Shown here: positions 26,015 through 44,632 of the stretch, piece by piece
How positions within the stretch are numbered: position 1 is the first letter of the stretch
Layout: each line of letters begins with the position of its first letter
Source of the DNA: an uncultured Candidatus Saccharibacteria bacterium
GTDB taxonomy: Bacteria; Patescibacteriota; Doudnabacteria; UBA920
Assembly (NCBI GenBank): GCA_964612745.1
Contig: CAZTCH010000001.1
Location: 77,387-141,386 of the forward strand
Reading direction: 5' to 3'
Length of the DNA stretch: 64,000 nt
Translations under genes and position numbers: made by a program
Notes under the pieces: generated by a model
What the model saw: the letters and a program-made list of their open reading frames with translations, nothing else
The model's database searches: none
What the model was told of the DNA's origin: nothing

Positions 26015-27280
26015 CTATTCTTGGCTAACTGGTTGCCAGCGAATGGTGTAGAGGCTCGATTTTTCTGTTCTTTGATACAGTTTTGCTTTTGGGTTTTCCT
26101 CTTTGTAAGCTTGGTATGTTACGAAGTCTGCAAATGGGCGCAGCCCAGTTTGTTCGATTAAAAAGATGGTGGGATTATTTTTGAATTGCACCATGCTCCC
26201 AACTTTGATGCTTGTCGGCAATTTTGCAGGATTAGCCCTGCTGGGGAAGTTAAGGACGATGTCCATTTGGGGTTTCTGCTTGCCTTCTTCTGGCTCTATA
26301 GAAAGTGGGTAATCGCCCCACCACGGGCCGCTTGACCAGTATATGGCTCCAACGAGCTCGTCGTTGTTGTCGACTGTGTCGAGCATGTTTCGCATGATTG
26401 CGAGCGCTTGTGGGTCAGCGCTGGGGGCTCCGTATTCGGTAAGTATACCGCGTACTTTATGTGTTTTGAGCCATTGAAGGAAGGGGAGGATGCGCTCAGT
26501 GCCCAACGTGGCTGCGCTGGTGACTTTGCTTGCATATGTGCCGGTGAAATCTTTGTCAAAGTAGATGTGCGCTGCATAGAGTAGTTTTCCTGCAGGGTCA
26601 GCAATGAGCAAATCGCGGTTGTTGTCCTGCCAAAAATAGGCGCTTTGCCAGCTATATCCAGGGATAAGCAGAGTAGTTTTGGTGTCTACTTTTCGAATTT
26701 CGGTCACGGTGGTTTGCATGATGTTTTTCCATGCAGTACTACCACCCGGTAAGTCGTGTGGCTCGTTCATGAGTTCGGCTCCCCACAACGCTGGTTTTTG
26801 CTTTAACGCAGTGAGTAGCTTTACCCAAACGTCGGCAAGGGCAGCGTTATCTTCTTCTTGTAACGGTGTGTGGTAGTAGCGTCCGTAATTGTGCAGATCA
26901 AGAATTACTTTGGTGTTTGCTGTTGCAGCAGAGTCTAAAAATGCCGCAAGCGCGGTAACGCCGCTCTGGTTTAGTTCGCCAAATTTTTTTGCTTGGAGGC
27001 GTTCCCAGAGAAAGGGGAGTCGGACCACGGTTAAGCCTTTGCTGGAAAATGAGGTAAGAATTTCTGTATCGGTTGGGTATATATAGTCTTTGCCTTCTAC
27101 CCCTGGGAGCTTCTGGGGGCCGAATTCTGCTCCGCTGCGGTTAACGCCATATACTTTTTCTGGGCGGGGTGCGCTTGCTCCGTCTGCTCGGTTGCTACCG
27201 GACACAAATGGAAAAACCACCGTAAATAAGCAGAAAAGCAATAAAATTTTGTGTGATTTAGCCATTGACTTTTTTCTCAA
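26015..27280 (-). CDS. Secreted glycoside hydrolase family 5 (cellulase-like)
   Basis: Signal peptide. GH5 acid/base NEP motif (ELMNEPHD) and nucleophile TEYG motif (GILTEYGAP). Confidence 0.75.
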   Translation of the reverse strand: MRKKSMAKSHKILLLFCLFTVVFPFVSGSNRADGASAPRPEKVYGVNRSGAEFGPQKLPGVEGKDYIYPTDTEILTSFSSKGLTVVRLPFLWERLQAKKFGELNQSGVTALAAFLDSAATANTKVILDLHNYGRYYHTPLQEEDNAALADVWVKLLTALKQKPALWGAELMNEPHDLPGGSTAWKNIMQTTVTEIRKVDTKTTLLIPGYSWQSAYFWQDNNRDLLIADPAGKLLYAAHIYFDKDFTGTYASKVTSAATLGTERILPFLQWLKTHKVRGILTEYGAPSADPQALAIMRNMLDTVDNNDELVGAIYWSSGPWWGDYPLSIEPEEGKQKPQMDIVLNFPSRANPAKLPTSIKVGSMVQFKNNPTIFLIEQTGLRPFADFVTYQAYKEENPKAKLYQRTEKSSLYTIRWQPVSQE

Positions 27281-27359
27281 AATATGATTTAATTACATAA
27301 CTAAGCCAAGAATTGGCCAGTTAGTCAAGGACTCACAGTATAACCTATTTTGGCCCGCT

Positions 27360-29444
27360 ATGCACCATTCCGTAATTGTCATTCCTACATATAACGAAAA
27401 AGAGAACATTGGTACGATTGTGCCAATGATTTTTTCTGTTGCAAAAAAACTGGAACGAGAGGCGATAATTTCAATTCTGGTAGTAGACGATACTTCTCCA
27501 GACGGTACGGCAGATGTGGTTCGGGCAATGCAAGCGCAGTATCCAAACTTGCAACTAATTCTGGGGAAAAAAGAAGGCTTGGGGAAAGCCTACGTCCGAG
27601 GAATGCATCATGCGTTAACGGTCTTGGGTGCGGACTCAGTATTTGAAATGGACGCAGATTTGTCCCACGACCCAGAGGCAATCCCAAGCATGCTCAGAGA
27701 AATTTTGTCTGACAGTGCCGATTTTGTGATTGGTTCACGATACGTTTCTGGTGGGTCTATCCCACTCGAGTGGCCTTTCATGCGCAAGCTCAATTCATGG
27801 GCAGGAAACTTTGTTGCTCGCGTAGTTATTGGGCTCTATGGTATTCGTGATTGTACCGGTGGTTTTCGTGCCATTCGTGCTTCGGTGCTTCAAGCTGTGC
27901 ATTTAGAAGAAATTCCAGTTGCAGGCTACGCTTTTCAAGTTAGCTTATTGCAACGAGCTGTTTTGGTTGGAGCACGGATATTGGAAGTACCAATTACTTT
28001 TCGTGACCGCGAAATTGGTGTGTCAAAGTTGCGACTGAAAGATCAAATTGAATTTATTTATAAATCCTTTACGTTACGCATTCATAGCCTGACTGTGCGC
28101 TACGGATTATTTGCATTACTATTTTCTGTTGTTGTAGCATTTTTCGCTGCTGTATACATGTCTACTGAGCACGTTGCTGCGTTTGTGGTAGGTATTTCTG
28201 TTTTGCTGTTGGCACAAGGTGTGTGGAATTTGTGGCTCATGATCCAAGTGTGGGATAACCCACATAAGACAGGTGAATATGGTTCACCAAAGACATATGA
28301 AGCGCCACAGTATTCTTTTACCGCACTGTTGCCTGCGCTACACGAAGAAGTAGTGATTGGAGATACTATTCGCGCTGTGCATGCAGTGGATTACCCAAGC
28401 CACTTAAAGCAGATTTTAGTCATTTGCCGGTACGACGACACGGGGACAATTGCAGCAGCAGAACAAGCGATTGCAGGTCTGGGCGAAGGTGCCAATGCGA
28501 AAGTACTGGTATATAACCGTATCCCAAGCAACAAGCCGAAACAAATGAACTTTGCTTTGGCAGAAACCACTGGGGATGTCGTTGTACCATTTGACGCAGA
28601 AGATGGACCACACAAAGATTTGTACCACATTGTAAACACCACCATGATTCGCCAGAATGCAGATGTTGTGCAGTCTGGGGTACAGCTCATGAACTTTGAA
28701 AGCAACTGGTATTCGGTGTACAACGTGTTGGAGTATTTCTTCTGGTTTAAGTCTGTCCTTCCGTATTTTGCTGCGCGTGGTGCAGTGCCTTTGGGTGGAA
28801 ACACCGTATTCTTTAAACGAAAGTGGCTAGAACGAATTGGTGGCTGGGACGAAGAATGTTTAACAGAAGATGCAGAAATTGGGATGAAGTTGTCCCAAGC
28901 TGGTGCGCGTATTCGAGTTATTTACGAAGAACAGCACGCAACCCAAGAAGAAGCACCGCTTTCACTGGGCGTGTTTATTAAGCAACGTACCCGTTGGCAC
29001 CAAGGGTTCATGCAAGTTATTGGCAAGGGTCAATGGCGTAAGTTTTTGACCGTAAGGCAGCAAGCATTGTCTTTGTACGTACTGGCATGGCCAGAAATCC
29101 AAGCGGTGTTGTTCTTGTACGCTTTTGTCTCTGCGGTTGCTTTGTTCTTTATTAAGCTTCCTGCATGGGCGACGGTCGTTTCTATATTGCCGTTGTATTT
29201 ACTCGTTGTATTGTTTGTTGTGTGTGTTGTTGCACTCTACCAATTTTGCCAAAGTTACAACAAGAAGTTTCCGTGGTGGATGCCGTTTAAAATGTTAGTA
29301 GCATTTTATCCTTTTCAGATTTTACTTGGAGTATCTGCGCTGCGAGCTGTGTACCGACTATTGAAAGGTTCAACTGGTTGGGAAAAGACTGTGCACGTTG
29401 GGGCACACCGTGTGAGCGTACCGCTAGAAGTACCGTTAGAATAA
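27360..29444 (+). CDS. Polyprenol-phosphate mannose synthase (Dpm1/Ppm1-like GT2) fused to a membrane domain and a second GT2 domain
   Basis: N-terminus VIVIPTYNEKENI, DDTSPDGT, MDADLSHDP, DCTGGFR matches DPM synthase. TM region at residues about 240-300. Second GT2 with FDAEDGP DXD motif. C-terminal TM helices. Confidence 0.75.
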   Translation: MHHSVIVIPTYNEKENIGTIVPMIFSVAKKLEREAIISILVVDDTSPDGTADVVRAMQAQYPNLQLILGKKEGLGKAYVRGMHHALTVLGADSVFEMDADLSHDPEAIPSMLREILSDSADFVIGSRYVSGGSIPLEWPFMRKLNSWAGNFVARVVIGLYGIRDCTGGFRAIRASVLQAVHLEEIPVAGYAFQVSLLQRAVLVGARILEVPITFRDREIGVSKLRLKDQIEFIYKSFTLRIHSLTVRYGLFALLFSVVVAFFAAVYMSTEHVAAFVVGISVLLLAQGVWNLWLMIQVWDNPHKTGEYGSPKTYEAPQYSFTALLPALHEEVVIGDTIRAVHAVDYPSHLKQILVICRYDDTGTIAAAEQAIAGLGEGANAKVLVYNRIPSNKPKQMNFALAETTGDVVVPFDAEDGPHKDLYHIVNTTMIRQNADVVQSGVQLMNFESNWYSVYNVLEYFFWFKSVLPYFAARGAVPLGGNTVFFKRKWLERIGGWDEECLTEDAEIGMKLSQAGARIRVIYEEQHATQEEAPLSLGVFIKQRTRWHQGFMQVIGKGQWRKFLTVRQQALSLYVLAWPEIQAVLFLYAFVSAVALFFIKLPAWATVVSILPLYLLVVLFVVCVVALYQFCQSYNKKFPWWMPFKMLVAFYPFQILLGVSALRAVYRLLKGSTGWEKTVHVGAHRVSVPLEVPLE

Positions 29445-29445
29445 T

Positions 29446-32130
29446 ATGAACGAACAAGAGATTTCACAATTACGCGCGGTTGGGTTACTCCCACAGTCTG
29501 AACAGACTGTGGCTCCTTCGGCGCACCCAACAGCGGCACCGACACATGTGCAGCATGTGCTTGCCACAGCAGACGATGCACTGGTGACCGAGCGTGGGGT
29601 GGTGACAACTCCAAAGATTTCTAAAATGTGGGAAATTGCACTGGTGGCAATCTTGCTCATTATTACTGCAGTAGCACATGGTACCAACATGTTGCAGTAC
29701 CCATACTACGAAAACGACGAAGGGACTTATATGTCACAAGCGTGGTCCGTGGTTACCTCTGGAACTTTGAGCCCGTACACGTACTGGTATGACCATGCAC
29801 CTGCTGGGTGGTTCTTTATTGCTGCATTTACCAAATTGGTTGGCGGATTCTTTGCATTTGGCACGAGCATAGACACGGGCCGAGTATTTATGTGGCTACT
29901 GCACGTGGTATCTGTATTTTTCGTCTATAGTATTGCCAAGCAACTCACCAAGGGGCGAGTACTGGCTGGGCTTGTCGCTGGATTAGTGTTTGCGTTATCT
30001 CCTCTGGCTCTCTACTTTGGCAGACGGGTGTTGCTAGATAATATGATGGTGTTCTGGGTGTTGTTGTCCTTGTGGACGTTAGTACGGGCAAAGGTGACCT
30101 TGCGCGCAACAGTGTTTGCAGCAGCTGCGTTTGGGGTTGCGGTGCTTACCAAAGAAACTGCGGTGTTTTTCTTGCCAGCATTTCTCTATGTGGTTTGGGC
30201 TGGTGTGCATAAATCACACCGTGTGTTTGGTTTGTCGCTCTGGGTGACTATCTCTGGCTTAGTGATTTCGCTGTATCCGTTGTACGCACTTATAAAGTCA
30301 GAATTCTTTCCTGCAAGCTGGTTTGGTTCGGGAAAGCACGTGAGTCTTTTGGAAACACTCAAGTTTCAGGCAGGGCGTGGTTCAGGGTTGCCGTTTTGGA
30401 ATACCCAGAGTGAGTTTTACACCAACTTGGTAGAGTGGTTTCACCGCGATACCGCACTTATGGTTATAGGTGGGAGCGCCCTGCTCCTTGGGCTTGTGTT
30501 TGCATATGCACGCAAAGAGTTTCGCGCGCCGTTGCTATTTGCAGTGTGTATGCTGTGGTTTTTGATGCGTGGTGGTATTATTATCAACTTTTACATTTTG
30601 CCACTGATTCCATTTCTCGCTTTGCTGATTGGTCTTGTGGTGTCACTGCTTGCAGAATCATTTAGTAAATTTTTGGTGAGCATAGACTGGGCGAAAGGAA
30701 TTGCGTATACGTATGCCGGTGCTGCAGTGGTTGCATGTGCGTTGTTCGTGGTGCCAATGCTTGCACAGTCTGGGGCGATTTACACAACAGACGAAACCGC
30801 GCCAATGAAACAGGCGCTCGAGTGGACCAAGCAAAACTTAGATCCGACTGCAGTTATGGTAGTGGACAACGCTATTTTTGTGGATTTGCGTGAAAGCCGT
30901 TTTGCTGGGGACCCTGCATTCAGCAATGCCGAGTGGTTTTGGAAAGTAGAAAAAGACCCAACAGTGTTTGCAGAGCGTATTGGTGGTGACTGGTTACACG
31001 TTGACTACGTGTTGTTGTCTCACGAAATGGTTCGCCAAATTAGTGACTATCAAATAACGTTGACCAAAGACATTTTGCCGCACACAAGTCTGGTGACTGG
31101 GTGGACTGGTGGGGGAGCGTTCTTGGATTTAGATAAATATATAAGTACAAATGGTGACTGGATGCGGGTGTACAAAGTGCATAGCCAAGAAGAGTTTGTA
31201 GGGGAAACACTCTGGCGTGCAGATGTAGCGCAGTATGTGCACAGCTATGGCCAAGTTGTGCCAGAGTCTGGTGTGACTACTGCAAGCACCCAAGCAGATA
31301 TGCTGCTTCGTGCAGTGCTGGTAGATGACCAGAAGACTTTTGCTGGGTTGTGGGCATGGACCCGTGACCATATGCAACACCGACAAGGGGATAAGCTCGT
31401 TTCCGAAGGCTGGCAGAATGGTTCTGCTGCAGTAGATTACAACGCGTACCTTGCCCCAAATCAAGATATCGCTACTGCGCTTATTTTGGCAGGACGCAAG
31501 TGGAAACAAGCAGAGTACACAACAGCAGGAACAGAAATTGTTGCAGACATTTGGAACAAACTCGCTATTTCTGCAAATGGACAAACACTGCTTGCAAGTT
31601 CTACGAAGCAAGGTGTGCAAGAAAGCAGACTGGTTAACACCAGCTTGCTTGCTCCGGCGTCCTACCGACTCTTTGCGCAAGTGGATAAAAGCCGCCCATG
31701 GGCTACACTAGCAGACCAAAGCTATACGTTGTTGCCAAACACAACTGCAACACTTACGAAAGAACTTACTGTTTCTAAATCCGGGGTAATTACCAAAGTT
31801 ACTTCTGGTGCATATGCACCTGCTGTTGTAGAGAAGCATGTAGCACAAGATGCTGTGTGGTTCGAAACTGATACTGCTCAGGCTTGGTTTACTACAAGCA
31901 CTGGCGAAGTTGCAAGTCTGACTACGGCAACTGTGAAAGACAAGCAATTGGCACAAGAGCTGTACGCGGAAGCCATTGCAACACACTTTAACAGAACAGA
32001 AAAAGCATGGGCTACAGAACTCGGATTTACAGAAAAGAGTGCTCTGTGGCAAGCATTTAGTTTGTTTGCTCCAGACCAGCGACTTATATCGGTTCTGCGA
32101 AATATAACCCCAGTAGTAGCAACGAAATAG
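29446..32130 (+). CDS. GT-C fold glycosyltransferase family 39 (PMT/ArnT-like) with large C-terminal extracytoplasmic domain, possibly an (alpha/alpha)6 glycosidase-like fold
   Basis: DE motif just after the first TM (YYENDEGTYMSQAW), about 11 TM helices, then about 450 aa soluble domain with GH8-like hints (DIATALILAGRKW). Confidence 0.65.
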   Translation: MNEQEISQLRAVGLLPQSEQTVAPSAHPTAAPTHVQHVLATADDALVTERGVVTTPKISKMWEIALVAILLIITAVAHGTNMLQYPYYENDEGTYMSQAWSVVTSGTLSPYTYWYDHAPAGWFFIAAFTKLVGGFFAFGTSIDTGRVFMWLLHVVSVFFVYSIAKQLTKGRVLAGLVAGLVFALSPLALYFGRRVLLDNMMVFWVLLSLWTLVRAKVTLRATVFAAAAFGVAVLTKETAVFFLPAFLYVVWAGVHKSHRVFGLSLWVTISGLVISLYPLYALIKSEFFPASWFGSGKHVSLLETLKFQAGRGSGLPFWNTQSEFYTNLVEWFHRDTALMVIGGSALLLGLVFAYARKEFRAPLLFAVCMLWFLMRGGIIINFYILPLIPFLALLIGLVVSLLAESFSKFLVSIDWAKGIAYTYAGAAVVACALFVVPMLAQSGAIYTTDETAPMKQALEWTKQNLDPTAVMVVDNAIFVDLRESRFAGDPAFSNAEWFWKVEKDPTVFAERIGGDWLHVDYVLLSHEMVRQISDYQITLTKDILPHTSLVTGWTGGGAFLDLDKYISTNGDWMRVYKVHSQEEFVGETLWRADVAQYVHSYGQVVPESGVTTASTQADMLLRAVLVDDQKTFAGLWAWTRDHMQHRQGDKLVSEGWQNGSAAVDYNAYLAPNQDIATALILAGRKWKQAEYTTAGTEIVADIWNKLAISANGQTLLASSTKQGVQESRLVNTSLLAPASYRLFAQVDKSRPWATLADQSYTLLPNTTATLTKELTVSKSGVITKVTSGAYAPAVVEKHVAQDAVWFETDTAQAWFTTSTGEVASLTTATVKDKQLAQELYAEAIATHFNRTEKAWATELGFTEKSALWQAFSLFAPDQRLISVLRNITPVVATK

Positions 32131-32137
32131 TTACTAT

Positions 32138-32438: not shown

Positions 32439-33188
32439 ATGAAACGCAGTTTATTTCGGTTGCTGCTGGTATTATTGATGAGCACAACTGCTCTCGCACA
32501 ATATCAGATACCTGAAAGAGTAAGCGCAGCGCTCCCTGAGCGCATGTGCAACTCTTGCACAACACAGATTGCGCCACTGACCTGCTCGCCGATTATTGAA
32601 TTTGATTTCTTTAGCGGCAACTCGGGCGGCGATCAACCGCGCCAGCTTGGCCACTTCGTTTTTAACCAGTTTTCCGAAGATTGGAAAACGGAATACTTCA
32701 CGACAGATACATTCACTAACGCTTATGGCAAGACAGTAATCGGCCGTGACGAAGCGAAAAGTTGGGTGAAGTATAAAATCAGCATGAGTGGCTGGGTAGA
32801 GATTGAAGCCTGGCTCCAAGGGGCGAGTGTCCAAACAAGCGGAGAAAACCATTTTAGCGGGGGCGCTATCGAAATGCGCCTACGCGGGTATAAGAACACT
32901 CTTGGCGGCTTTACAGTTGTTGAGATGTGGTCTTCACCAGAGGGTTTTCGTCTCAGTTCATTTGGTTCGACATTGAATTATGGGAGCTTCGCTGGACTTC
33001 CCAGTATGCAATGTTGGAGCAATATGTCCATTAATGCGCCGGCGTACGGCGGATACAACCGGGTTGTTTTGAATCAAATCTTAAACGACTGGGACATGTT
33101 GTATTACCGGCCAGTCGAAGTTGGAAAGCCTGGGACGGACGTTTTGTTCAATTTTTTACCGGTTAAGATCACTTTTCCTGGCTGTTAA
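32439..33188 (+). CDS. Secreted protein of unknown function
   Basis: Signal peptide MKRSLFRLLLVLLMSTTALAQ. 249 aa, Cys-containing, no known motif. Confidence 0.5.
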   Translation: MKRSLFRLLLVLLMSTTALAQYQIPERVSAALPERMCNSCTTQIAPLTCSPIIEFDFFSGNSGGDQPRQLGHFVFNQFSEDWKTEYFTTDTFTNAYGKTVIGRDEAKSWVKYKISMSGWVEIEAWLQGASVQTSGENHFSGGAIEMRLRGYKNTLGGFTVVEMWSSPEGFRLSSFGSTLNYGSFAGLPSMQCWSNMSINAPAYGGYNRVVLNQILNDWDMLYYRPVEVGKPGTDVLFNFLPVKITFPGC

Positions 33189-34236: not shown

Positions 34237-34248
34237 AGGAGCATCGTC

Positions 34249-35306: not shown

Positions 35307-35317
35307 TTTTTTATACT

Positions 35318-37423
35318 TTATTTTATTGTTGTGCCGGTGCGGTAGGTGACGAATTCTGCTTGGTTTACGGTGACTACTTTTGCGGGGTCAATGTTCAGTC
35401 TGGTTGCAGCTGCAGGTGTGATGTAGCGTTTAACGCTGCCTTCTATTTTGTAGACTCTGGCGTTGTTCGCTACTTTTATGTATTCCACATCGTCGTACGA
35501 GTCGAGGATTTCTTGGTTTACCATAACCACGTCTTCCCATTTCCCGCCGTAGCTCAAGAATATTTGTGCATTGAGTACGGGCATTTTTGCGCCCCACAAG
35601 GTTACCCAGTATACAGTTGGGTCACCATCTACTCGCACATATTTACCCATTGGGGAGTTTGGGGTGTTGCTACCAATCGTAAATGCCTGTTTTGCTGTTT
35701 CGCTTAAGGTAAGTGCGAATGAGTCTAAAGTTGCTTGGGTCAAGCGATAGGTGCCAGTTTGTCCAATGAGCACTGTTGGGTTTAGGGTGAAGCCAGTAGC
35801 TGTACTAAATGCATTCACGCCGTATTTTGTTTGCAAGTAGTTTGCAACGTCGGTGCGCACTTGTGTTGGTGCCCAAGATGTAGCAACCACTGCGCCGGTT
35901 ATCGTGTTCTGAAACGAAAAGACAATGACCGGAGTAAGGATGTTTGCGCTATTGTACGCCCAGCCAGACAATGTAGTCGCGCTGACGCTGTCTACATATC
36001 CTTCTGCTACTTTGGCGGTAGGAGTGGTTGCAGGCTTCACGACAAATGTAAATACTTTTTGAGCGGTTGCGCCAGTAGCATCAGTGACTTTTACGGGTAC
36101 TTGGTAAGTGCCGGCAAAGGGCATTATTTGTCCGGAGTTTATCGAAACAAATGTACCATTGCTATTTAGCTGCGTGTAGCAGCAAGGGTAGGCGTTGTAT
36201 TGCCCCGAAAGAGTGCTCCAAGTGTATGGAGCGGTGCCCCCAGAAGCAGCAAGGGAGATGCTGTACGCTGCACCAACCATGCCATCTTGGAGTTGGTCAG
36301 GAGTGGTAATGGCAAGTATTTGCGAGGTTGTACCGGTAATAGTGAATGTTGGGCCGTAGAATGGCGTTGCAGGTGTGCTGGTGACTGGTGTGCCATTGTT
36401 TTGTAGCGCGTCTAACCCAAGTCGCATAGTGCCAGCACTCGCTGCGCCAATAGATGCACTGACTTCGAGGCTCACGGTGGTGTTCGCCGGAATAGTCAGG
36501 GCAGGAGAAAAGGTAATGGTGGCATAGCGAGTAGCACCTTCTACCATGTTCAGTGTGATCGCTGTCGTGCCGACAAATGCAGTGCGATCTTTGTACAGTC
36601 TCATGTTGCTAAACTGGTCGCGGCTCGCAGAGTCAGAAACAACACGCAGAGAAGTGACAGTTGCAGGAGTGTTCCCAGCGCGTAGTCCGAAGTTGGCAAA
36701 AGTGTAGTTGCTGGTGCTGGCAGGGATAACGGTGGCAACACCAGACAATGACTCGCTCAGAGTAAGGGTACCGTTCGCGAGAGTGCCCGCAGCTGCGACT
36801 GGAATGCTTCTGCTACTGCTAGTGCCAGATTGGTTTGTAACGGCGAACGTAGCAGTACCTGTGCCATTACCCAGCAGTACATTGATTTGTGTTGCGCTTT
36901 GGAAGCTAATGGTACCAGTGATAGTCCCAGTAGAAACGAGCTGGTTACCGGTTGCTGCAAACGTGCCATAGAGCACGACGAATGCGCCGCTAGTTGCTTG
37001 CGAGTTGTTGTACTGTGGAGTGGCGTTTGGGTCAAAGCCTTGAATGCCGGTGAGTGTTGGGGCAGTGCTTGTGGTCCCACTGGCATTTACTTTCCAAGGG
37101 ATAATACTGTACACACCAAGACCACTTCCGTCAGTCACGTGGACACCAAGTTCAAACGTGCCTGCTTGGGTTGGGGTGCCACTAAACACGCCAGAGCTTG
37201 CAAGCGTCATGCTTGTTCCGGGGTGTGTCAGGTACCATTTTTCAAAAACAATAGTGCCACTTCCAGTTGCAGAAAGCTGGGAGGAGTACGCTTGACCGAC
37301 GGTGCCGTCTGGTAAACTTGTGGTGACTACCATGGGGGCAGCAAGGGCAGCGCGAGGTACGCCGGCGAGAGTCAAGGCGCACACCAGCGAAAATAGCCCA
37401 AAAACCTTTAGAAATCTGTGCAT
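35318..37423 (-). CDS. Large secreted cell-surface protein with He_PIG (putative Ig) domains, Thr/Ser/Gly-rich
   Basis: Signal peptide. Two motifs LPDGTVGQAYSSQLSATGSG and GMVGAAYSISLAASGGTAPYTW are typical of PF05345. 701 aa, beta-rich. Confidence 0.6.
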   Translation of the reverse strand: MHRFLKVFGLFSLVCALTLAGVPRAALAAPMVVTTSLPDGTVGQAYSSQLSATGSGTIVFEKWYLTHPGTSMTLASSGVFSGTPTQAGTFELGVHVTDGSGLGVYSIIPWKVNASGTTSTAPTLTGIQGFDPNATPQYNNSQATSGAFVVLYGTFAATGNQLVSTGTITGTISFQSATQINVLLGNGTGTATFAVTNQSGTSSSRSIPVAAAGTLANGTLTLSESLSGVATVIPASTSNYTFANFGLRAGNTPATVTSLRVVSDSASRDQFSNMRLYKDRTAFVGTTAITLNMVEGATRYATITFSPALTIPANTTVSLEVSASIGAASAGTMRLGLDALQNNGTPVTSTPATPFYGPTFTITGTTSQILAITTPDQLQDGMVGAAYSISLAASGGTAPYTWSTLSGQYNAYPCCYTQLNSNGTFVSINSGQIMPFAGTYQVPVKVTDATGATAQKVFTFVVKPATTPTAKVAEGYVDSVSATTLSGWAYNSANILTPVIVFSFQNTITGAVVATSWAPTQVRTDVANYLQTKYGVNAFSTATGFTLNPTVLIGQTGTYRLTQATLDSFALTLSETAKQAFTIGSNTPNSPMGKYVRVDGDPTVYWVTLWGAKMPVLNAQIFLSYGGKWEDVVMVNQEILDSYDDVEYIKVANNARVYKIEGSVKRYITPAAATRLNIDPAKVVTVNQAEFVTYRTGTTIK

Positions 37424-37451
37424 AAAATCAAATATTACGAATGAGTGTACC

Positions 37452-39092
37452 TTATTGTACCAGATATTTGGTCACAACAATCCATGTGCCAGAATATGGC
37501 CTGACATCGGCAAAACCGGCTTCGTCGGCCTGCTTCCAATTGCTGGGCACTGTTGGTTTGTTGCTCCCAAACGCGTTGGTCCATAACAGCCACACGGTGT
37601 CACCTGTTTTTACTGCATCGGCAAAGGAGGGGAGTAAATCTGCATCTGTGAGAATGGCGGTACCTACAAAGTGAGGCAGATTTTTTACAGATGTATTGCC
37701 GCCAGAGTAGAGCATGGGTCTGGGCCATTCTGCAGTCCGGTCCAAGGTTCGTATTTGTGCGGGCGGTGCGTCATCGCTTAAATCTTCGAGGCTGTATCGC
37801 GAAGACGACATGGTAGTGGTTTGGGTGACGATTGCTGCGGGTGGGGTAAGTTGCGATAAGTAGTATTTTAGGTTAAAGAATTCAAAGCTCGTCCCTACAT
37901 AGAGTTTGTCGGTTGGTGTCGCGTGACTCTGTAAGTAGGTCGCAGCTCCAGCCATACCAGTTTTTTTAGTAATGTCTAACTTCTGCCAGTTATTGGCAAA
38001 CACAAGTACACACACAATGGCGTATGCAGCTGTTGCGGTCCAAATAAGCCACGAACGTTTCCACGAGTCTATCCAGAGTGCGAGAGCTGCCAGAAGAAAA
38101 GCTGATGCGTACAAAAAGTATCGCACAAGGTAAACCGAAGAGCTTTGGCCTTTTACAAATGCAAGCAGTGCAAACAGGAGAGAGCCTGCAAAGGGTGCGG
38201 CAAACAGAAATGCCACGAGCCACACGTGAGTATTTTTTTGTTTTTTGAGAAGGAGGGCAAAAATACTGACGAGTACAATGGTGGTAACTGCCAAAGTGAT
38301 TTTGGTCGTTGTTTTTGCAATGTCCGACTCAAGGCCAAATGTGACCTGCCACAGTGTGGAAGGAATGCTCCACCAATTGAGTGGTGGAATCCAATACCCC
38401 GCACCAACTTGTTTAAACTGGAAGATAAACCAATTTGTCCACGGTAAAAACAAGAGGATTGTGGTCAGGTATCCAGTGGCGAGTGGTGCGTAGGCGCGTA
38501 TATCTTTTTTGAAATGCACTGCGGTGTAGAGTAAGGCGTACACGCATGCAGCTACCACAGAAAAAAGTAAGTAGTAGTGGGTGAGCGCAGCAATCCCTGC
38601 CAGAGCTCCAAACGCGACAAATAATTTGAATTTATTTTTTATTTCCGTGCTGTTCAGGGCTTTTGCCAGCACCCACGCCATGCTTACCGCGAGAAATGCG
38701 CCAAATGTGTACATACGTGCTTCGGTGGCGTATTGGATTTGAAATGGGTTGACGACTATAGCAAGTGCGGCGATTGTCGCAGCTCTGGGGCTTTTAAAGA
38801 TATCTCGCACAAATCCGTACGTAGTTGCTGCTGTTGCCAGCCCAAAGAATACCGAAAAGCCACGCAGGGCGAGCAGTGAGTCGCCAAGCAGCATGCTCCA
38901 TAACCGGAGCGCAACGTAATACGCTGGTGGGTGCACGTCCAGACCGATACGGTAGAACATCTCACCCCACGGGTAGTGAATGAGCAGTGCGGAAAATGCT
39001 TCGTCATGCCACAAAGAAATGCTCGTGTTGTGGTAGAGGCGAAGGAAAAGACCAAAGGCAAGGATAGAGACGAGAGCGAGGTATTTTTTCAT
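37452..39092 (-). CDS. GT-C fold glycosyltransferase family 39 (ArnT/PMT-like)
   Basis: N-terminal TM then a DE motif (LWHDEAFSALL). About 12 TM helices plus a C-terminal soluble domain. Confidence 0.7.
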   Translation of the reverse strand: MKKYLALVSILAFGLFLRLYHNTSISLWHDEAFSALLIHYPWGEMFYRIGLDVHPPAYYVALRLWSMLLGDSLLALRGFSVFFGLATAATTYGFVRDIFKSPRAATIAALAIVVNPFQIQYATEARMYTFGAFLAVSMAWVLAKALNSTEIKNKFKLFVAFGALAGIAALTHYYLLFSVVAACVYALLYTAVHFKKDIRAYAPLATGYLTTILLFLPWTNWFIFQFKQVGAGYWIPPLNWWSIPSTLWQVTFGLESDIAKTTTKITLAVTTIVLVSIFALLLKKQKNTHVWLVAFLFAAPFAGSLLFALLAFVKGQSSSVYLVRYFLYASAFLLAALALWIDSWKRSWLIWTATAAYAIVCVLVFANNWQKLDITKKTGMAGAATYLQSHATPTDKLYVGTSFEFFNLKYYLSQLTPPAAIVTQTTTMSSSRYSLEDLSDDAPPAQIRTLDRTAEWPRPMLYSGGNTSVKNLPHFVGTAILTDADLLPSFADAVKTGDTVWLLWTNAFGSNKPTVPSNWKQADEAGFADVRPYSGTWIVVTKYLVQ

Positions 39093-39378
39093 GGTAACTA
39101 AGTTACAAATACGTAATTCGTAATGCGCAATGTGAAATCAGAATTCAGAACTCCGAAACAAACTCCAATCCACAATCCGCCAAACGGCGGAGGCGGACGA
39201 AATCTAAGTTTTAAACATTGGGATTTATTCTTGATGGGCTCTGTGTATAGTTTACAGTTTTGAGTTGAAGTTTTGCGTTTTGACTTTTGAATTTTGAGTT
39301 ACATTTGTATTTATTTGGGCTTTGTCCGCCAGCTGGCGGATTGGAATTTATTTGAATTTGTTGTTTGTTATTTGGTAT
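39093..39378. repeat. Dispersed intergenic element containing a 52-bp conserved motif (39250-39301) flanked by an internal inverted repeat (ccaatccgcc...ggcggattgg)
   Basis: gtttacagttttgagttgaagttttgcgttttgacttttgaattttgagtta is identical to 44719-44770. Heptamer ttttgNN periodicity. Confidence 0.55.
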
Positions 39379-41190
39379 TTACTGTATTTCATACACTGCC
39401 AACACTGCTTGACCGAATTTGTTGCGCATTTCTGTTTGCAACTTGGCGTTGGGGTAAAATGCTTTAAACTTTTTTACATCGAACATGCTGGATTGGGTGA
39501 AGACCACTTGCATACCAGGGAGTAAGCCGTGAGGGTAGGTTGATTTGCCGCGGATAATGTCGGAAGGGGCAAGCCACGCATCTTCTGGGTCCACTTGCAT
39601 GTACGGCATGTTTTTTGGATTATCGACGCAGTTTGGTACACGGAATGCTTCGGTGCGGTCACAGGCACGTGCGCCATCTACTGTGGTGAGGTAGTCAACG
39701 GTTTGCACAGAAAACTTGTCGAGTACTAAATATGTAGTGTTTCTATCTCCATGCTTTTTCAAGTAGTCACTCACGACTGTTAAGTCACTGCGAAAAGCAA
39801 AATAATTTTCTGGGCTATGTGCTGCACCAATAAAATAGTGGGCGTACGTTTGGATAGGTACCCCAATAAAGAAACACACTGCAAGTATTTGCAAAGAAAT
39901 TTGCACTGCTCGTTCCATGCGCGGGCTGCCATGGGGGTGTTTGGTTACTACGTGCCAGACAAACGACCCAACGGTGTGCAAGCCATATGCGGTGATTATG
40001 AACACTGCAGGAATAGTCCCAATAGCTCTGAGGCCGTGGGGGATTCCTTCTGCAGTCGTAATGACCGGTAAAAGGAAAGAAACGAACCAGCCTGCCAAAA
40101 CAAAGCTTGGGTAATGTCGTTTCTGTTGGATAGGGGAGAACATGTAGCGCAGTGCATTCCAAATCACCAGTAACAACCCAAACGCAAAGAATGGGGAAAC
40201 GAGAGGGGAGAGGAAGGCAAGCCCAGAAATATTGTGTCGCCAGTTTAGGTCGCCTTCGGTAAAGTAGCCAAGAAAACTAACTCGCGTTACTTCCAGTACC
40301 GTGCCAATCAAATCACCCTTGTTCAGTTCTGGGTTAAATACGCTTACTTGGCCGCTTCTACCAATAAAGGCATCTGGGTGTGTGTAAAAATAGTGCGCTA
40401 AAGGAGTTATACAAATCGCAAAAGCAATAATTGCCAGAGCGGTCGCTTTCCAGTATGGCGAAAGAGTGGCAACGAGTCCTCGTTCTTTTAAGTGCGCAAG
40501 GAGTGGCCAAATAATGTACAAAGCAAGCAGTGGGGCGAGTACCCGATAGGCAATGTATGTGTAAAACCCAAGTGCAAAGCTTGCACCGAGCGCAATAGCA
40601 TATGCATATTGTGTTTTGCGAGGTTGGTCGCTTTGGTATGTTTTGAGGAGGAAGAGTACAGTGGCGGTAACAAAGAGCGGAATCATGTTTGCACGAAACG
40701 CAGTGCGAGAAAGTACTACATGCCATGTAGAAGTTGCCATGATAAACGTGGCGAGCAGGGCTACTATATTTGCAGATCCAACAGTTTGCTGCACTTGCTC
40801 TACCAATGTTTGTCTGCCAATTTGTACGGTGCGTTCTGCGTGTGTGTCTTCTTCTCTTCCGACTAGTTTTCTAAACAGAGCCTTTGTGACATAAAAACAA
40901 AGTACTGTGGCGCCAATGCCAACGAGGGCGGAGACGACGTGGTGCGCAAATGGGCTTCTGCCGAATAGCTTTACAGAAGCGTACAAGAAGTAAAAGAATA
41001 AAGCTTCACGACCATTGCCTCGTTCGTAAAACGGCTGGAAGAAGCCTTGGTCCATCGAGTTTATGTCTAGTCCATTTGCTGCTTCGTCAGGGAATAAACC
41101 GCCCGGAAGACTGCCAATATGGTACAGTCGAAAGAATAGAGCAAGGGCAAACGTGAGGATTGTTATGGCGAGAAATATCTTTTTATTCAT
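39379..41190 (-). CDS. GT-C fold glycosyltransferase family 39 (ArnT/PMT-like)
   Basis: N-terminal TM then a DE motif (GLFPDEAANGLD). Polytopic, 603 aa. Confidence 0.7.
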   Translation of the reverse strand: MNKKIFLAITILTFALALFFRLYHIGSLPGGLFPDEAANGLDINSMDQGFFQPFYERGNGREALFFYFLYASVKLFGRSPFAHHVVSALVGIGATVLCFYVTKALFRKLVGREEDTHAERTVQIGRQTLVEQVQQTVGSANIVALLATFIMATSTWHVVLSRTAFRANMIPLFVTATVLFLLKTYQSDQPRKTQYAYAIALGASFALGFYTYIAYRVLAPLLALYIIWPLLAHLKERGLVATLSPYWKATALAIIAFAICITPLAHYFYTHPDAFIGRSGQVSVFNPELNKGDLIGTVLEVTRVSFLGYFTEGDLNWRHNISGLAFLSPLVSPFFAFGLLLVIWNALRYMFSPIQQKRHYPSFVLAGWFVSFLLPVITTAEGIPHGLRAIGTIPAVFIITAYGLHTVGSFVWHVVTKHPHGSPRMERAVQISLQILAVCFFIGVPIQTYAHYFIGAAHSPENYFAFRSDLTVVSDYLKKHGDRNTTYLVLDKFSVQTVDYLTTVDGARACDRTEAFRVPNCVDNPKNMPYMQVDPEDAWLAPSDIIRGKSTYPHGLLPGMQVVFTQSSMFDVKKFKAFYPNAKLQTEMRNKFGQAVLAVYEIQ

Positions 41191-41228
41191 TTGCTTTTTA
41201 GTTCAATTTTTTGTATAATTATTTTTAA

Positions 41229-41570
41229 GTGACACTCATGACTCAGCATAAATACTATTTCATTTTGTTGTTTCTACTTGCCGTTGTTATACATATCATA
41301 ACATGGCTCTTAATTGTGAGTTATGCACCAACCAGTGGGCAACTCGTTCCAATCCACTACAACGTTATTAGCGGGTACGACGAACTGGGTAGCAGAGCAG
41401 ATTTATTGCAAGTACCAGTGTTTGGGATGCTCGTTGTGGTGGTGAATGCGGTCATTGCGTGGCTGTTTCGTTCAACTGGCCGGTTTGTGGGATCGCTTGC
41501 AGTAGGAGTGGCTTTAGCAGTGTCTCTGGTGTTGTTGCTCAGTACCTTGTTGCTTGTGGTACAAGCTTAA
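41229..41570 (+). CDS. Small membrane protein, unknown function
   Basis: 113 aa, 3 TM helices. tgtataatt -10 at about 41200. Confidence 0.4.
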   Translation: MTLMTQHKYYFILLFLLAVVIHIITWLLIVSYAPTSGQLVPIHYNVISGYDELGSRADLLQVPVFGMLVVVVNAVIAWLFRSTGRFVGSLAVGVALAVSLVLLLSTLLLVVQA

Positions 41571-41591
41571 TTTTGAATATATCTATATTGT

Positions 41592-43259
41592 ATGTTTCGT
41601 AAACGCACGCTCACAGAACGTTTTTGGGAAGTACTCCCTGGTTTGCAGTTTTGGTCTGCTTTTTTAGGTGCCATTGCACTTGCAAAGTACCAACCTGTTT
41701 GGGCAGCGTTATTTATTATTTGTTTTGATTTATATTGGGTGCTCAAAGCCTGCAATGTTGGCTTGCACCTGCTTTCCAGTTACCGCAAGTTTCGTGTGCA
41801 TGTAACCATCGATTGGCTTTCGGAAGTACGTGCGATAACGACAGATGTAACGTCGTACATTGCGAAGCTAACACAACAAGCAGAGACGGATACTCGCGTG
41901 GTAGCGAGGCACTACTTTGCGCATGAAGTAGAAAGACTCCAAAAGCTTCTTGCTTCGGGTAAGACGATACGGTCGTACGAAGACATCGTGCATTTGGTGT
42001 TGTTTCCTTTTGTAGACGAGTCGGTAGAAGTGTTGTCTTCGACGTTGGACGCCATGCTCGCAGTGAACTACCCGAAAGAGAAGATCTTTATTATATTGGC
42101 GAGCGAAGGACGCATGGGCGAGCCTGCGCAAGAAACAGCCCGGATACTGAGAGAAAAATACGCCAAGCACTTTGGCAATTTCTTTGTCACCGTGCACCCC
42201 GATGGTTTGGAAGGGGAAATAAAAGGGAAAAGTGCCAATGCGAGCTGGGCTGTGCAAGCAGTTATGCCAGAGTTGGAGCGTTTAGGCATAGCTGTGCCTG
42301 ACTGTATGGTGTCGAACTTCGACAGTGACACGGTGGTGCACCCACAATATTTTGCGCGCGTGACCTACGAGTTTTTGACCGCAGAAAAGCCATATCGTTC
42401 CAGCTACCAACCAATCGCTATCTACAACAACAACATTTGGGACGCACCAGCATTTATTCGGGTGATTAGCGTATCCAACTCTTTTTGGCAGTTTACTGAA
42501 AGCAGCAGGCCAGACCGATTACGTACGTTTAGCTCTCATTCCATGACGCTGCAAGCACTGGTAGAGGTTGGTTTTTGGAAAAAAGATTTGGTGAACGAAG
42601 ACGGGTTTATTTTCTGGCAATGCTACTTGCACTACGAAGGGGATTACTCCGTCGTGCCTTTGTTTATCCCTATTAGCTTGGACACCTGTTTAGCAGAGAC
42701 AACGTGGCAAACGTTTAAGAACCAGTACTTACAAAAGCGTCGTTGGGCGTACAACGTAGAGTATTACCCACACTTAATTTGGCCACTCATACGTTCGAAA
42801 GCGCCATTTTGGGATAAGTTTTTGAAGCTCTACCAGTATGTGGAAGGGAACTTTAACTGGGCAACTGCTAGTGTTTTGATTTCTACGCTCGGACTTTTAC
42901 CACTGTTCTTGGGTGGTCCAGAGTTTTTGGATAGTGTTGTGGCGTACAACTTGCCACACGTGACCCAAACGTTATTGCGCGTGTCGTTGGTGTTTATTTC
43001 TGCGAGTGTGTACGTGAACTTGGTGTTATTACCTCCACGTCCAGCAAAATATGGCCGTTTCCGCAGCGTCATGATGTACTTGCAGTGGTTGCTAGTTCCT
43101 TTTGTGTCACTTATTTTTGGAAGTATTCCTGCGATTGAAGCGCATACACGGTTAATGCTGGGTAAGTATTTAGAGTTCTGGGTGACCCCGAAAGTTCGCA
43201 AAGGGGAGAGTACAGGGTTGACCATGAAAGAAATGCAAAAAGTTGGGGAGAATAAGTAG
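41592..43259 (+). CDS. Membrane-embedded processive family 2 glycosyltransferase (cellulose/chitin synthase-like)
   Basis: Ordered motifs D, DSD (NFDSDTV), ED (NEDGF), and QKRRW (QxxRW), with flanking TM helices. Confidence 0.65.
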   Translation: MFRKRTLTERFWEVLPGLQFWSAFLGAIALAKYQPVWAALFIICFDLYWVLKACNVGLHLLSSYRKFRVHVTIDWLSEVRAITTDVTSYIAKLTQQAETDTRVVARHYFAHEVERLQKLLASGKTIRSYEDIVHLVLFPFVDESVEVLSSTLDAMLAVNYPKEKIFIILASEGRMGEPAQETARILREKYAKHFGNFFVTVHPDGLEGEIKGKSANASWAVQAVMPELERLGIAVPDCMVSNFDSDTVVHPQYFARVTYEFLTAEKPYRSSYQPIAIYNNNIWDAPAFIRVISVSNSFWQFTESSRPDRLRTFSSHSMTLQALVEVGFWKKDLVNEDGFIFWQCYLHYEGDYSVVPLFIPISLDTCLAETTWQTFKNQYLQKRRWAYNVEYYPHLIWPLIRSKAPFWDKFLKLYQYVEGNFNWATASVLISTLGLLPLFLGGPEFLDSVVAYNLPHVTQTLLRVSLVFISASVYVNLVLLPPRPAKYGRFRSVMMYLQWLLVPFVSLIFGSIPAIEAHTRLMLGKYLEFWVTPKVRKGESTGLTMKEMQKVGENK

Positions 43260-43576
43260 GGGGTAAGAGAGAATAGAGAGTAGAGGTTAGAGAATAGTAA
43301 GACAGGAATGAGGAGTTAGGAATTAGGTTGTCGTTCGACCCTGAGCTCACGGCCTAAGGGTAGGGAGTAGTAAAATAAATTCCAAATCTCAAGCACCAAA
43401 TAACAATAAATTCCAAAATCCAAAGTAAAAACTAGTAAGTCAAAACTGTAAACTTTCAATACATTTCAGTTTTGAGTTTACAGTTGCAGTTTTGCGTTTT
43501 GACCTTTCAGTTCTCAGTTTTATGCTTTTATTTAGCATTTAGCATTTAGCACTTAGCACTTAGTACTCGTTCAACT
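43260..43576. repeat. Intergenic heptamer-repeat element (purine arm, 52-bp motif variant at 43467-43522, ttagcat/ttagcac tandem)
   Basis: Direct reading. Same architecture as 39093-39378 and 44633-44930. Confidence 0.55.
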
Positions 43577-44632
43577 ATGAACTACTTACTCTATTGCGGT
43601 ATTGCATGTGTGTTGGCACTGGTGATTACGCCTTTGGTGCGTAAGCTGGCTTTTCGCCTTGGGTGCGTCGATAGACCGCAGGGCGGCAGGCATATTCACA
43701 CGAAAGAAACTGCTTTACTGGGCGGTTTAGCTGTTATCTTCTCTATGGTGTTAGCGGGTGGACTCTATGTGCTTTCTGGTAGTTTTGATTTTTCTGTGGT
43801 TCCTACCAAATTTGTGGTTGGCATTGTCACCGGCGTGTTCCTGCTAGTGTTGGGTGGATTTTTTGATGATAAATATACGCTACCCGCTCGCTACTCGTTT
43901 GTGTTTCCAGCGCTTGCTGCGGCGGCGGTAGTAGCTTCGGGGGTAGGTGTGGGGATCACTATATTGACCAACCCATTTGGTGGCGTAGTCCACTTGGGTA
44001 CTCTGTGGTTGGGTGTGCCAATCTCCGCGGTCTTCGTGTGGTTGTGGATTGTAGGTATGACGTACACCACCAAGCTACTGGACGGCTTAGATGGTTTAGC
44101 TGCAGGAGTGTCGCTCATTGGTGGTTTGGTTATGTTTGCTCTGTCACTCACAGATAAAGTTAACCAACCAGTCACGGCAACCCTGGCAATAATTTTTGTG
44201 GGGGCACTTGCTGGCTACTTGTTTTACGCGTTTAATCCTGCCTCTATCTTTTTAGGTGAAATTGGCAGCACATTTCTTGGCTTCTTTCTCGCGGTGCTCG
44301 CGGTGTTAACGGGAGCAAAAATTGCTACTGCGGTACTTGTGATGGGGATTCCGATTTTTGATGTAGCTTGGGCAATTGTCCGCAGACTCTGGCGACGACA
44401 AAATCCATTTGTGGGGGATAGAGAGCATTTGCATTTTCTGCTACTCGATGCAGGGCTTTCACAGCGACAAGCGGTGTTGGTGTTTTACGCACTTGCAGGC
44501 TTGTTTGGCTTTGTAGCAGTGTTCCTACAAAGCATGGGTAAGCTGGTGGCGCTATTTTTACTTTTGGCAGTCATGGTGGGGATTGTAGGGGCTCTGGCGA
44601 GAGTGTATAGGAAGAAGACTAGTAACGAGTAA
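43577..44632 (+). CDS. Glycosyltransferase family 4 polyprenyl-phosphate sugar-1-phosphate transferase (WecA/MraY family)
   Basis: 351 aa, 10-11 TM helices. The N-terminal pattern and conserved cytoplasmic loops match the MraY/WecA superfamily. Confidence 0.7.
   Translation: MNYLLYCGIACVLALVITPLVRKLAFRLGCVDRPQGGRHIHTKETALLGGLAVIFSMVLAGGLYVLSGSFDFSVVPTKFVVGIVTGVFLLVLGGFFDDKYTLPARYSFVFPALAAAAVVASGVGVGITILTNPFGGVVHLGTLWLGVPISAVFVWLWIVGMTYTTKLLDGLDGLAAGVSLIGGLVMFALSLTDKVNQPVTATLAIIFVGALAGYLFYAFNPASIFLGEIGSTFLGFFLAVLAVLTGAKIATAVLVMGIPIFDVAWAIVRRLWRRQNPFVGDREHLHFLLLDAGLSQRQAVLVFYALAGLFGFVAVFLQSMGKLVALFLLLAVMVGIVGALARVYRKKTSNE

Follow-up and report, generated by a model that had tools for sequence, protein, structure and literature searches.

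The stretch of DNA analysed here (the window, 64,000 nucleotides on a contig of an uncultured Candidatus Saccharibacteria bacterium) carries between positions 26015 and 44632 a real and functionally coherent cluster of genes for envelope glycans. Two groups of glycosyltransferase genes, which we call module A (26015-32130) and module B (37452-44632), are separated by a variable slot of genes for secreted proteins. Module A encodes a fusion of two GT2 glycosyltransferases, a GT-C glycosyltransferase with a C-terminal GH8 fold, and a secreted GH5 protein; module B encodes two further GT-Cs, another membrane GT2 and a WecA-like enzyme. The initial annotation had listed eleven open reading frames (ORFs) in this block, all of which are present at the coordinates and on the strands that it gave, and profile searches upheld nearly all of its domain calls. 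Domain calls are from Pfam unless stated otherwise, with extra models taken from NCBIfam. The related loci that were compared have L-numbers (e.g. L001, L088) and the homologous proteins have P-numbers (e.g. P0002).

The proteins of module A

The 694-aa protein encoded at 27360-29444 on the plus strand is a bifunctional GT2-GT2, and the initial annotation had already described it as a Ppm1-like GT2 fused to a second GT2. Residues 6-178 match Glycos_transf_2 and residues 320-548 match Glyco_tranf_2_3 (9.6e-39). The N-domain comprises residues 1-240 and is followed by two transmembrane (TM) helices and a C-domain, residues 300-690, with three C-terminal TM helices. In sequence searches of the PDB, residues 6-239 matched the dolichyl-phosphate mannose synthase (DPMS) of P. 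furiosus (5mlz, 1.2e-32), and also ArnC, while residues 392-620 matched BcsA at about 1e-7. An AlphaFold2 (AF2) model of the fusion was obtained with pLDDT 88.6 and pTM 0.84. With Foldseek, the N-domain of this model found DPMS (5mlz, 1.3e-17), ArnC and GtrB, and the C-domain found BcsA (9b8v, 2.7e-15; 4p00, 4e-14), hyaluronan synthase (HAS; 8smn, 3e-13) and CesA6. The membrane architecture of BcsA and HAS, a GT domain with interface helices and a TM bundle, is present in the predicted structure. The motifs DAD, KPxxxN, FDAED, GGN, TED (502-504) and QRxRW (QRTRW, 542-546 in the window) are invariant across 42 homologs of the fusion. Judged by sequence and model together, the N-domain is a polyprenyl-phosphate sugar synthase similar to DPMS, GtrB and ArnC, with a sugar specificity (mannose, glucose or other) that is not readable from the sequence, and the C-domain is a predicted processive synthase of the BcsA/HAS/PgaC type. 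The initial annotation had counted one processive GT2 with a QxxRW motif in the block; that one is found in module B, but the C-domain of the fusion, with both QRTRW and TED, is a second.

The next gene starts 1 nt past the stop codon of the fusion, and the two are translationally coupled. It encodes a GT-C of 894 aa (29446-32130, plus strand; PMT_2 2.6e-13 and Glyco_hydro_8 1e-17), hereafter GT-C::GH8, in which the GT-C part covers residues ~55-450 and is followed by a linker domain and a C-terminal (alpha/alpha)6 domain with the GH8 fold at ~575-890. A large periplasmic domain had been noticed at this end before and is indeed there, but its identity had been missed and was shown by the profile searches and the structure prediction. 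The AF2 model (pLDDT 87.4, pTM 0.80) has a complete (alpha/alpha)6 barrel. Its closest solved folds in Foldseek are the endoglucanases of cellulose synthase systems, CMCax (1wzz, 4.6e-11) and BcsZ (the two at E 5e-11 to 1e-9), and CelA is also found, with target TM-scores of 0.62-0.66 for the three; the NCBIfam model for BcsZ matches the domain at 6e-17. The membrane part resembles AglB/STT3, ArnT, ALG9/12 and Pmt4, and AftD is also among the fold matches of the model. The pair D91-E92 after TM1 (ENDEG, 89-93) is invariant in 42 homologs.

The profile of the GH8 family aligned with CelA of C. thermocellum (1cem) across the whole domain (2.2e-43), and the family consensus retains SEGQ with the acid (E95 of CelA), DADED (D152) and YGYDAFR with the base (D278). 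As read from the hmmalign alignment, the E/D/D triad of the consensus is kept in 141 of ~190 GH8 domains of the family. The window protein reads TTASTQ, APNQD and GAYAPAV at the three motifs, with Ser (S614) in place of the acid and Ala (A671) in place of D152; the motif of the base has been replaced and stays unaligned in hmmalign, and MAFFT puts Ala opposite the base Asp. With all three catalytic residues lost, the domain is by its sequence catalytically dead. The same triple loss is found in the clade of the window protein (P0002-P0011, L001, L003-5, L008, L087/88).

It is exactly the clade with this triple loss that carries a divergently transcribed, secreted GH5. In the window it is encoded at 26015-27280 on the minus strand, and both the Cellulase domain (3.7e-37) and the signal peptide agree with the initial annotation; there is also a C-terminal extension of ~70 aa. 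The best match in the PDB is an endo-1,4-beta-glucanase (4lx4, 4.8e-72), followed by further cellulase and endoglucanase entries, and the catalytic motifs NEP and TEYG are intact when read in the translation. From these sequence features, it is apparently an active, secreted endo-beta-1,4-glucanase similar to Cel5A, and we take it to belong to subfamily GH5_5, which is our own assignment. The gene is syntenic, with 48-58% identity, in L001, L003-5 and L087/88.

The GT-C::GH8 architecture has hundreds of homologs, nearly all named ones being from Patescibacteria. A scan with one genome per species gave at least 594 relatives, which also include Chloroflexota, Dormibacterota and Actinomycetota, and among the carriers are the cultured Frigoribacterium, Curtobacterium, Plantibacter, Arthrobacter and Mycobacterium spp. 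By its nearest neighbours the source of the window is placed with a MAG contig of 97% identity that is labelled Saccharibacteria, and Doudnabacteria are among the named relatives. At 68 of the 72 loci with upstream sequence, the strand of the GT-C also carries a synthase-type GT2 (40-59% identity) that ends within 700 bp on its upstream side, and these loci span Patescibacteria, Chloroflexota, Dormibacterota and Actinomycetota. A DPMS-like unit is fused or nearby at 22 of 80 loci. The GT-C genes are conservedly linked to the Ppm1-like gene, and not scattered in the way expected for GT-Cs of generic function. In cultured Frigoribacterium and Curtobacterium all four modules are unfused; the Frigoribacterium locus L069 (operon at 8364-15780) has them in a row, in the order synthase GT2, GT-C, DUF4397, GH8 (a gene of its own here, 3.3e-33) and DPMS-like GT2. 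These fusions and fissions across the relatives speak for the synthase, the lipid-sugar synthase, the GT-C and the GH8 acting in one pathway.

Three other observations were made among these loci. The gene for the DUF4397 protein of L069 (11869-12822, 4.9e-31) follows that of the GT-C and precedes that of the separate GH8. In L002 (705-12640), from a Saccharimonadales metagenome-assembled genome (MAG), a 1367-aa multi-GT protein precedes three consecutive cassettes of GT2 and GT-C: a dual GT2 of 744 aa with a PMT_2 protein of 519 aa, a dual GT2 of 736 aa with a 532-aa protein, and a GT2 of 475 aa with a GT-C::GH8. This implies that the cassette has been paralogously amplified in some genomes of the candidate phyla radiation (CPR). 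Furthermore, this gene pair, which is typical of Patescibacteria, is present in 13 MAG records whose titles read 'uncultured Gammaproteobacteria', 'Pseudomonadales' or 'Bdellovibrionales' (L013, L015, L017, L019, L024, L027-L028, L032, L034, L036, L042, L044, L063). They are probably mislabelled bins, and organism labels for this family need care.

Module B, the variable slot and the flanks

Module B begins with two GT-C genes on the minus strand. The first encodes 546 aa (37452-39092; PMT_2 1.3e-12; DE pair in WHDEAF, ~28-33), with an identity of 54-58% in L001, L088 and L089 and of 41-44% in L090 and L091. The second encodes 603 aa (39379-41190; PMT 1.8e-06, a weak match; DE pair in FPDEAA, ~32-37), and its homologs have 43-63% identity and the same place in L088-L091. 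The two GT-Cs adjoin each other in L088-L091, and the contig of L001 ends beside the 546-aa GT-C. Between the two in L090 we also observed a gene for a PemK-family toxin (7085-7471).

The most conserved gene of the block encodes a membrane GT2 of 555 aa and processive type (41592-43259, plus strand; Glyco_trans_2_3 1.6e-08; motifs DSD, NEDG and QKRRW). It has at least 1793 homologs, still with 66-67% identity at rank 120; the identity is 66-87% over at least 120 protein clusters, with lengths of 551-580 aa throughout, and 66-76% in L089-L091. In the window and in L088-L091 this gene is always preceded by one for a protein of ~113 aa with 3-4 TM segments. The window member, u113 (41229-41570, plus strand), lies inside the block, was not in the earlier list, and ends 21 nt upstream of the GT2; its TM segments are predicted, it has no family match, and its homologs in L088-L091 have 32-40% identity and the same place. 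By analogy with IcaD/PgaD, u113 is a candidate partner subunit, and the conservation suggests that the 555-aa GT2 and u113 make up an essential two-subunit synthase similar to IcaA/IcaD and specific to this part of Patescibacteria. In the PDB, neither of the two GT-Cs (546 and 603 aa) nor the 555-aa GT2 had a sequence match at E<=1.

The last gene of module B (43577-44632, plus strand) encodes a WecA/TagO-like polyprenyl-phosphate N-acetylhexosamine-1-phosphate transferase (Glycos_transf_4, PF00953, 1e-26, 94 bits). The initial annotation had placed it in the WecA/MraY family, and it fits WecA better than MraY: the NCBIfam scores are 90.8 bits for wecA (cut-off 326) and 44.8 bits for mraY (cut-off 192), both below threshold, and MraY was rejected on this comparison. 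Homologs with 50-68% identity are found in L089-L091, where L21 follows as in the window. The order GT-C, GT-C, small TM protein, GT2, WecA-like, L21, RecR, DnaB, CysS is common to the window, L089, L090 and L091, and L090 has two extra genes between the GT2 and the WecA-like gene.

All three GT-Cs of the block have the DE pair after TM1, as the initial annotation had stated, but the assignment to GT39 was an over-call. Only the 603-aa GT-C passes the cut-off for PMT (PF02366; 28.1 vs 22.7 bits), covering profile positions 108-233 of 245, while the 546-aa and 894-aa proteins match PMT_2 and not PMT. None of the three matches PMT_4TMC (PF16192) at E<=0.01. The DE pair is common to many GT-C families and is therefore not diagnostic of GT39.

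The slot between the modules holds four genes. Three were earlier described as signal-peptide proteins of unknown function, and signal-like N-termini are seen on all of them. The first, s249 (32439-33188, plus strand), has five Cys residues and no family match above the cut-off, and its homologs in L003-L005 (27-34% identity) have the same place after GT-C::GH8. The middle one, s258 (33460-34236, plus strand), does have a recognisable domain, TIGR03437 Soli_cterm (3.9e-24, 85.6 bits vs a cut-off of 29); the third, s222 (34249-34917, plus strand), has no family match. No homologs of s258 and s222 were found at any related locus compared.

The fourth gene encodes a secreted He_PIG/Ig-like surface protein (35318-37423, minus strand). 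The Thr/Ser-rich He_PIG protein of the initial annotation was recovered with 26.6 bits (8.5e-06) against a cut-off of 24 and a Ser+Thr content of 24%. The gene begins 28 nt past the stop codon of the 546-aa GT-C, on the same strand. The protein has short T/S/P linkers such as NASGTTSTAPT, and no run restricted to S/T/P/A/G/N/Q, as in Ser/Thr-rich disordered regions, exceeds 11 residues. Its homologs in L003 and L089 have 49% identity in the N-terminal part and 64-67% in the C-terminal ~115 aa, and the middle varies; this conserved C-terminal domain reaches 27 bits with DUF4340 when scanned alone. In L089 the He_PIG-like gene is directly downstream of the 546-aa GT-C, and in L003, whose contig breaks off before a GT-C is reached, it lies at the corresponding end of the locus. 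The C-terminal extension of the GH5 (26015-26245) superficially resembles the C-terminus of the He_PIG protein (35318-35660), and a shared module for anchoring to the cell surface could explain this. A phmmer comparison of the two C-termini gave no significant cross-match, and the resemblance is an unverified visual impression.

The inter-module genes differ between the loci. The window has s249, s258, s222 and the He_PIG gene, DUF218 proteins and a GSDH-PKD-PA14 protein (~1200 aa) are encoded in L001 and L003, and in L088 modules B and A abut directly, without genes for surface proteins between them. Only s249 and the He_PIG-like protein recur among the slot genes across the relatives compared.

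Upstream of the block, family scans of the window ORFs found MurD, FtsW, MurJ, LepA and the ATP synthase operon, and downstream L21, RecR, DnaB and CysS. The GC content is flat across the window, ~0.46. The initial annotation had called the block an island; a mobile island is ruled out by the flat GC and the housekeeping flanks, which are themselves syntenic in relatives, and the block is core chromosome, with both flanks and both modules syntenic. A terminator-like hairpin at 25979-26005 on the minus strand (12-bp stem, 6 GC pairs) lies directly 3' of the GH5 stop codon, and a strong one at 34942-34989 on the plus strand (20-bp stem followed by a T-run) lies 25 nt past the s222 stop codon and ends the plus-strand unit. 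The two hairpins delimit transcription units.

Three ORFs just outside the block are also relevant. The first, u272 (23416-24234, plus strand), is an accessory ORF whose product has one TM segment and matches neither Pfam nor NCBIfam models; its homologs (30-35% identity) have the same place between the ATP synthase operon and the GH5 in L001 and L003-L005. The second, u135 (24241-24648, plus strand), is a small soluble accessory ORF without a family match, with homologs (26-31% identity) that adjoin the GH5 in L001, L003, L087 and L088 and one that is present in L089 too. The third encodes a secreted protein of the F5/8 type C (discoidin/CBM-like) kind (24705-25958, plus strand; F5_F8_type_C 2.4e-09; signal-like N-terminus). 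No homolog of it was found at any related locus compared, and the gene is, as far as sequence comparison goes, a lineage-specific insertion. Profile scans at E<=1 of u272, u135, u113, s249 and s222 gave noise only.

Further away, the L21 gene (45029-45334) has, ~70 nt upstream, a perfect 12/12 sigma-70 consensus promoter (TTGACA-17-TATAAT) at 44932-44960 on the plus strand. A 23S rRNA intervening-sequence protein (PF05635, 4.8e-32) is encoded at 46200-46562 on the minus strand between RecR and DnaB; the same spot has no gene in L090 and L091 and a different gene (275 aa) in L089. The row of cell-wall genes also includes, between FtsW and MurJ, one for a DUF4012 protein of 718 aa (4467-6623, plus strand), another uncharacterised envelope gene in a conserved context.

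What the two modules may make

We see an even chance that the locus consists of two independently conserved modules for envelope polysaccharides and a variable slot, with module A making a cellulose-like glucan served by a GT-C, and module B a second polymer. The polymer chemistry, the donor sugar, the acceptor and the division of labour are what we infer from the observed domain identities, predicted folds, states of the catalytic motifs, and gene order and conservation. In module A, the BcsA/HAS-type C-domain would polymerise a sugar nucleotide and thread the polymer through the membrane, a synthase-dependent route for which the product is most likely a cellulose-like beta-1,4-glucan. The fused DPMS/GtrB-like N-domain would load a monosaccharide, mannose or glucose, onto polyprenyl phosphate, and once flipped this lipid-linked sugar would be the donor for the coupled GT-C. 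The GH8-fold domain would hold the emerging glycan chain as the acceptor, and on the outer side of the membrane the GT-C would decorate, branch or anchor it. In most members of the family the GH8 domain would also have endoglucanase activity and, like BcsZ, trim the chain. In the window lineage, where acid, substrate-distorting Asp and base are all gone, it would survive as a binding domain; the secreted GH5 may have taken over the role of hydrolase and trim the product, like the GH5 CcsZ of clostridial cellulose synthesis. Module B would be a second, more strongly conserved pathway, most likely for a wall-linked secondary polymer that the WecA-like enzyme primes on undecaprenyl phosphate, the membrane GT2 extends, and the two GT-Cs finish outside.

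Several points weigh against this picture. The analysis is computational throughout. We know of no synthase-dependent system with a GT-C partner, and the coupling step is for this reason without experimental precedent. In NCBIfam the synthase domain scores higher with PgaC/IcaA (96.8 bits) than with CelA (45.7 bits), all far below the cut-offs, so a polymer containing N-acetylglucosamine, or another one such as other beta-glycans, is possible. No ORF of the block has a Pfam match to a PilZ domain or a BcsB-type partner, and no ORF of the window matches the GtrA flippase segment found in some homologs of the fusion (P0236, P0237, P0239) at E<=0.01; PF04138 had no match among the scanned ORFs. 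A count over 68 loci does favour the GH5 as replacement of the GH8, with a GH5 gene within 10 kb at 8 of the 29 where the GH8 triad is non-canonical and at none of the 39 where it is intact (Fisher p = 6e-4), but only about three lineages contribute to this count and the statistics ignore kinship. At the other 21 of the 29 loci, from many lineages, the triad is degenerate with no GH5 nearby, which suggests that binding of a glycan, and not hydrolysis, is the indispensable role of the domain. For module B, a protein acceptor is at least an equally good explanation of the place that the He_PIG gene keeps just downstream of a GT-C.

The polysaccharide reading of module A draws on its likeness to the Bcs systems (BcsA with the GH8 BcsZ) and to the clostridial Ccs systems, in which the GH5 CcsZ stands in place of the GH8 in the cellulose synthase operon beside CcsA (PMC7710045). 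Common to all is a membrane-bound processive GT2 with TED and QxxRW and a BcsA-like (in the window predicted) fold, and, beside the synthase, a gene for its own endo-beta-1,4-glucanase, either GH8 or GH5; the GH5 next to the dead GH8 mirrors the swap from GH8 to GH5 between the Bcs and Ccs loci. The window differs in having neither a PilZ/cyclic di-GMP module nor a BcsB, BcsC or CcsB partner. Its synthase is much smaller, with ~5 TM helices, is fused to a polyprenyl-phosphate sugar synthase and has a GT-C as partner, and the GH8 of its lineage is fused to that GT-C and inactive.

The mycobacterial Emb proteins and AftD are GT-C arabinosyltransferases that take a polyprenyl-P-sugar as donor and bind the polysaccharide acceptor with a C-terminal beta-sandwich, a carbohydrate-binding module (CBM). 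The window protein is similar in being a GT-C with an extracytoplasmic C-terminal domain that would bind the acceptor, and AftD is one of its fold matches. However, its domain is a degenerate (alpha/alpha)6 barrel of a glycoside hydrolase and not a CBM beta-sandwich, and the backbone would come from a synthase-type GT2.

It is unlikely that the locus serves decoration only, with all GT-Cs using polyprenyl-P-sugars on a teichoic-acid-like or lipoglycan polymer as in CsbB/GtcA/YfhO, the 'synthase' GT2s making lipid-linked primers or glycolipid anchors and no free beta-glucan, and the GH8 and GH5 remodelling a wall polymer. Pairs of a GtrB-like protein and a GT-C are the standard Gram-positive route for glycosylation of lipoteichoic and wall teichoic acids (LTA/WTA), and module A resembles the GtrA/GtrB/GtrC systems and the CsbB/GtcA/YfhO system for LTA (PMC5836110, PMC7389260) in having a DPMS/GtrB-like GT2 for the polyprenyl-P-monosaccharide and an adjacent GT-C as its user on the outside. 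In the homologs with a GtrA domain this domain sits between both GT2 domains, the extra pairs of dual GT2 and GT-C in L002 are without GH8, and the synthase domain has weak matches to Glyco_transf_21, a glycolipid synthase. The glucan exopolysaccharide of L. johnsonii also requires a GtrA/GtrB pair (PMC7117936). The full set of TED and QxxRW, and a fold that resembles BcsA and HAS down to the interface and TM helices, point instead to a synthase that polymerises and translocates, and the GH8 and GH5 are specifically cellulase-like. Unlike the Gtr systems, the window has its GtrB-like unit fused to a processive synthase and a GT-C with the glycan cleft of a GH8, and no GtrA-like gene was found in it.

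From the combination of Ppm1 and Pmt, the initial annotation had proposed protein O-mannosylation, with the Ser/Thr-rich neighbours as substrates. A dedicated O-glycosylation of S-layer or surface proteins, in which the DPMS-like domain makes polyprenyl-P-mannose or -glucose and one or more GT-Cs transfer it to Ser/Thr of the He_PIG protein and the neighbouring secreted proteins, seems to us quite unlikely and is a weaker reading than that of polysaccharide modules. The locus does share with the actinobacterial Ppm1/Pmt (GT39) and with GtrB/PgtC2, a proven route of protein O-glucosylation in streptococci (PMC11092751), a DPMS-like donor synthase, GT-Cs whose first outer loop has the DE motif, and, beside one GT-C, a gene for a secreted protein rich in Ser/Thr. 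The short T/S/P linkers of the He_PIG protein and the place that its gene keeps in L089, and at the matching end of L003, also fit this proposal. The GT-C that is coupled to the DPMS-like gene, however, has the polysaccharide-cleft fold of a GH8 and a BcsA-like synthase as partner at 68 of 72 loci; the GT-Cs have no PMT_4TMC match, and two of the three match the generic PMT_2 only. As for the substrates, the He_PIG-like gene does recur, but the GT-C pair of module B stays linked to the GT2 and WecA genes in L088, L090 and L091, which have no He_PIG gene. The He_PIG protein is without the long Ser/Thr-rich disordered regions of the known streptococcal substrates (PMC11092751), and s258, s222 and the F5/8 type C protein have no counterparts at the related loci.

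A catabolic role, in which the GH5, the GH8 domain and the F5/8 type C protein scavenge cellulose from the environment or a host and lie beside the glycosyltransferases by coincidence, is very improbable: the GH5 is secreted and apparently active and a secreted protein of carbohydrate-binding type adjoins it, but the GH8 is covalently fused to a GT-C and dead here, the GH5 keeps its synteny with the GT2/GT-C pair in all members of the clade that were examined and is absent near loci with an intact GH8, and Pfam scans of the ORFs found no sugar transporter or downstream catabolic gene in the block.

Meaning for the envelope of Patescibacteria

In the literature open to search we found no description of a pathway of synthase GT2 and GT-C(::GH8), or of envelope glycosylation in the CPR. 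The components of the two polysaccharide modules are all of known types, and the novelty is one of variation, in how they are combined and in the pseudo-GH8 domain. We tentatively suggest, with considerable doubt, that the synthase GT2 and the GT-C(::GH8), often with a DPMS/GtrB-like unit, are an undescribed, fifth-style route of polysaccharide assembly across monoderm phyla, by which we mean Patescibacteria, Chloroflexota and Actinomycetota. A BcsA-like synthase would extrude a beta-glucan, the GT-C would branch it or ligate it to the wall, and the GH fold would hold the acceptor. The CPR polymer, together with the product of module B, could then be the main secondary wall polymer that displays He_PIG-like proteins.

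Patescibacteria attach to host cells, and the chemistry of their envelope is essentially unknown; a 2024 perspective on these bacteria makes no mention of polysaccharide, S-layer or glycosylation. The locus supplies two concrete and conserved gene sets for envelope glycans that are testable, and the pathway of module A can be tested because it is present in cultured Actinomycetota, where the modules are unfused (Frigoribacterium, Curtobacterium). If the proposal is true, a processive synthase coupled to a GT-C would be a new logic in glyco-enzymology, and the reuse of a cellulase fold as the acceptor-binding domain of a GT-C would likewise be new. It also appears that proteins annotated as GH8 in the CPR ('endoglucanase Y', 'glycosyl hydrolase family 8') are mostly biosynthetic fusions, some of them dead, and therefore they should not be counted as a capacity to degrade cellulose.

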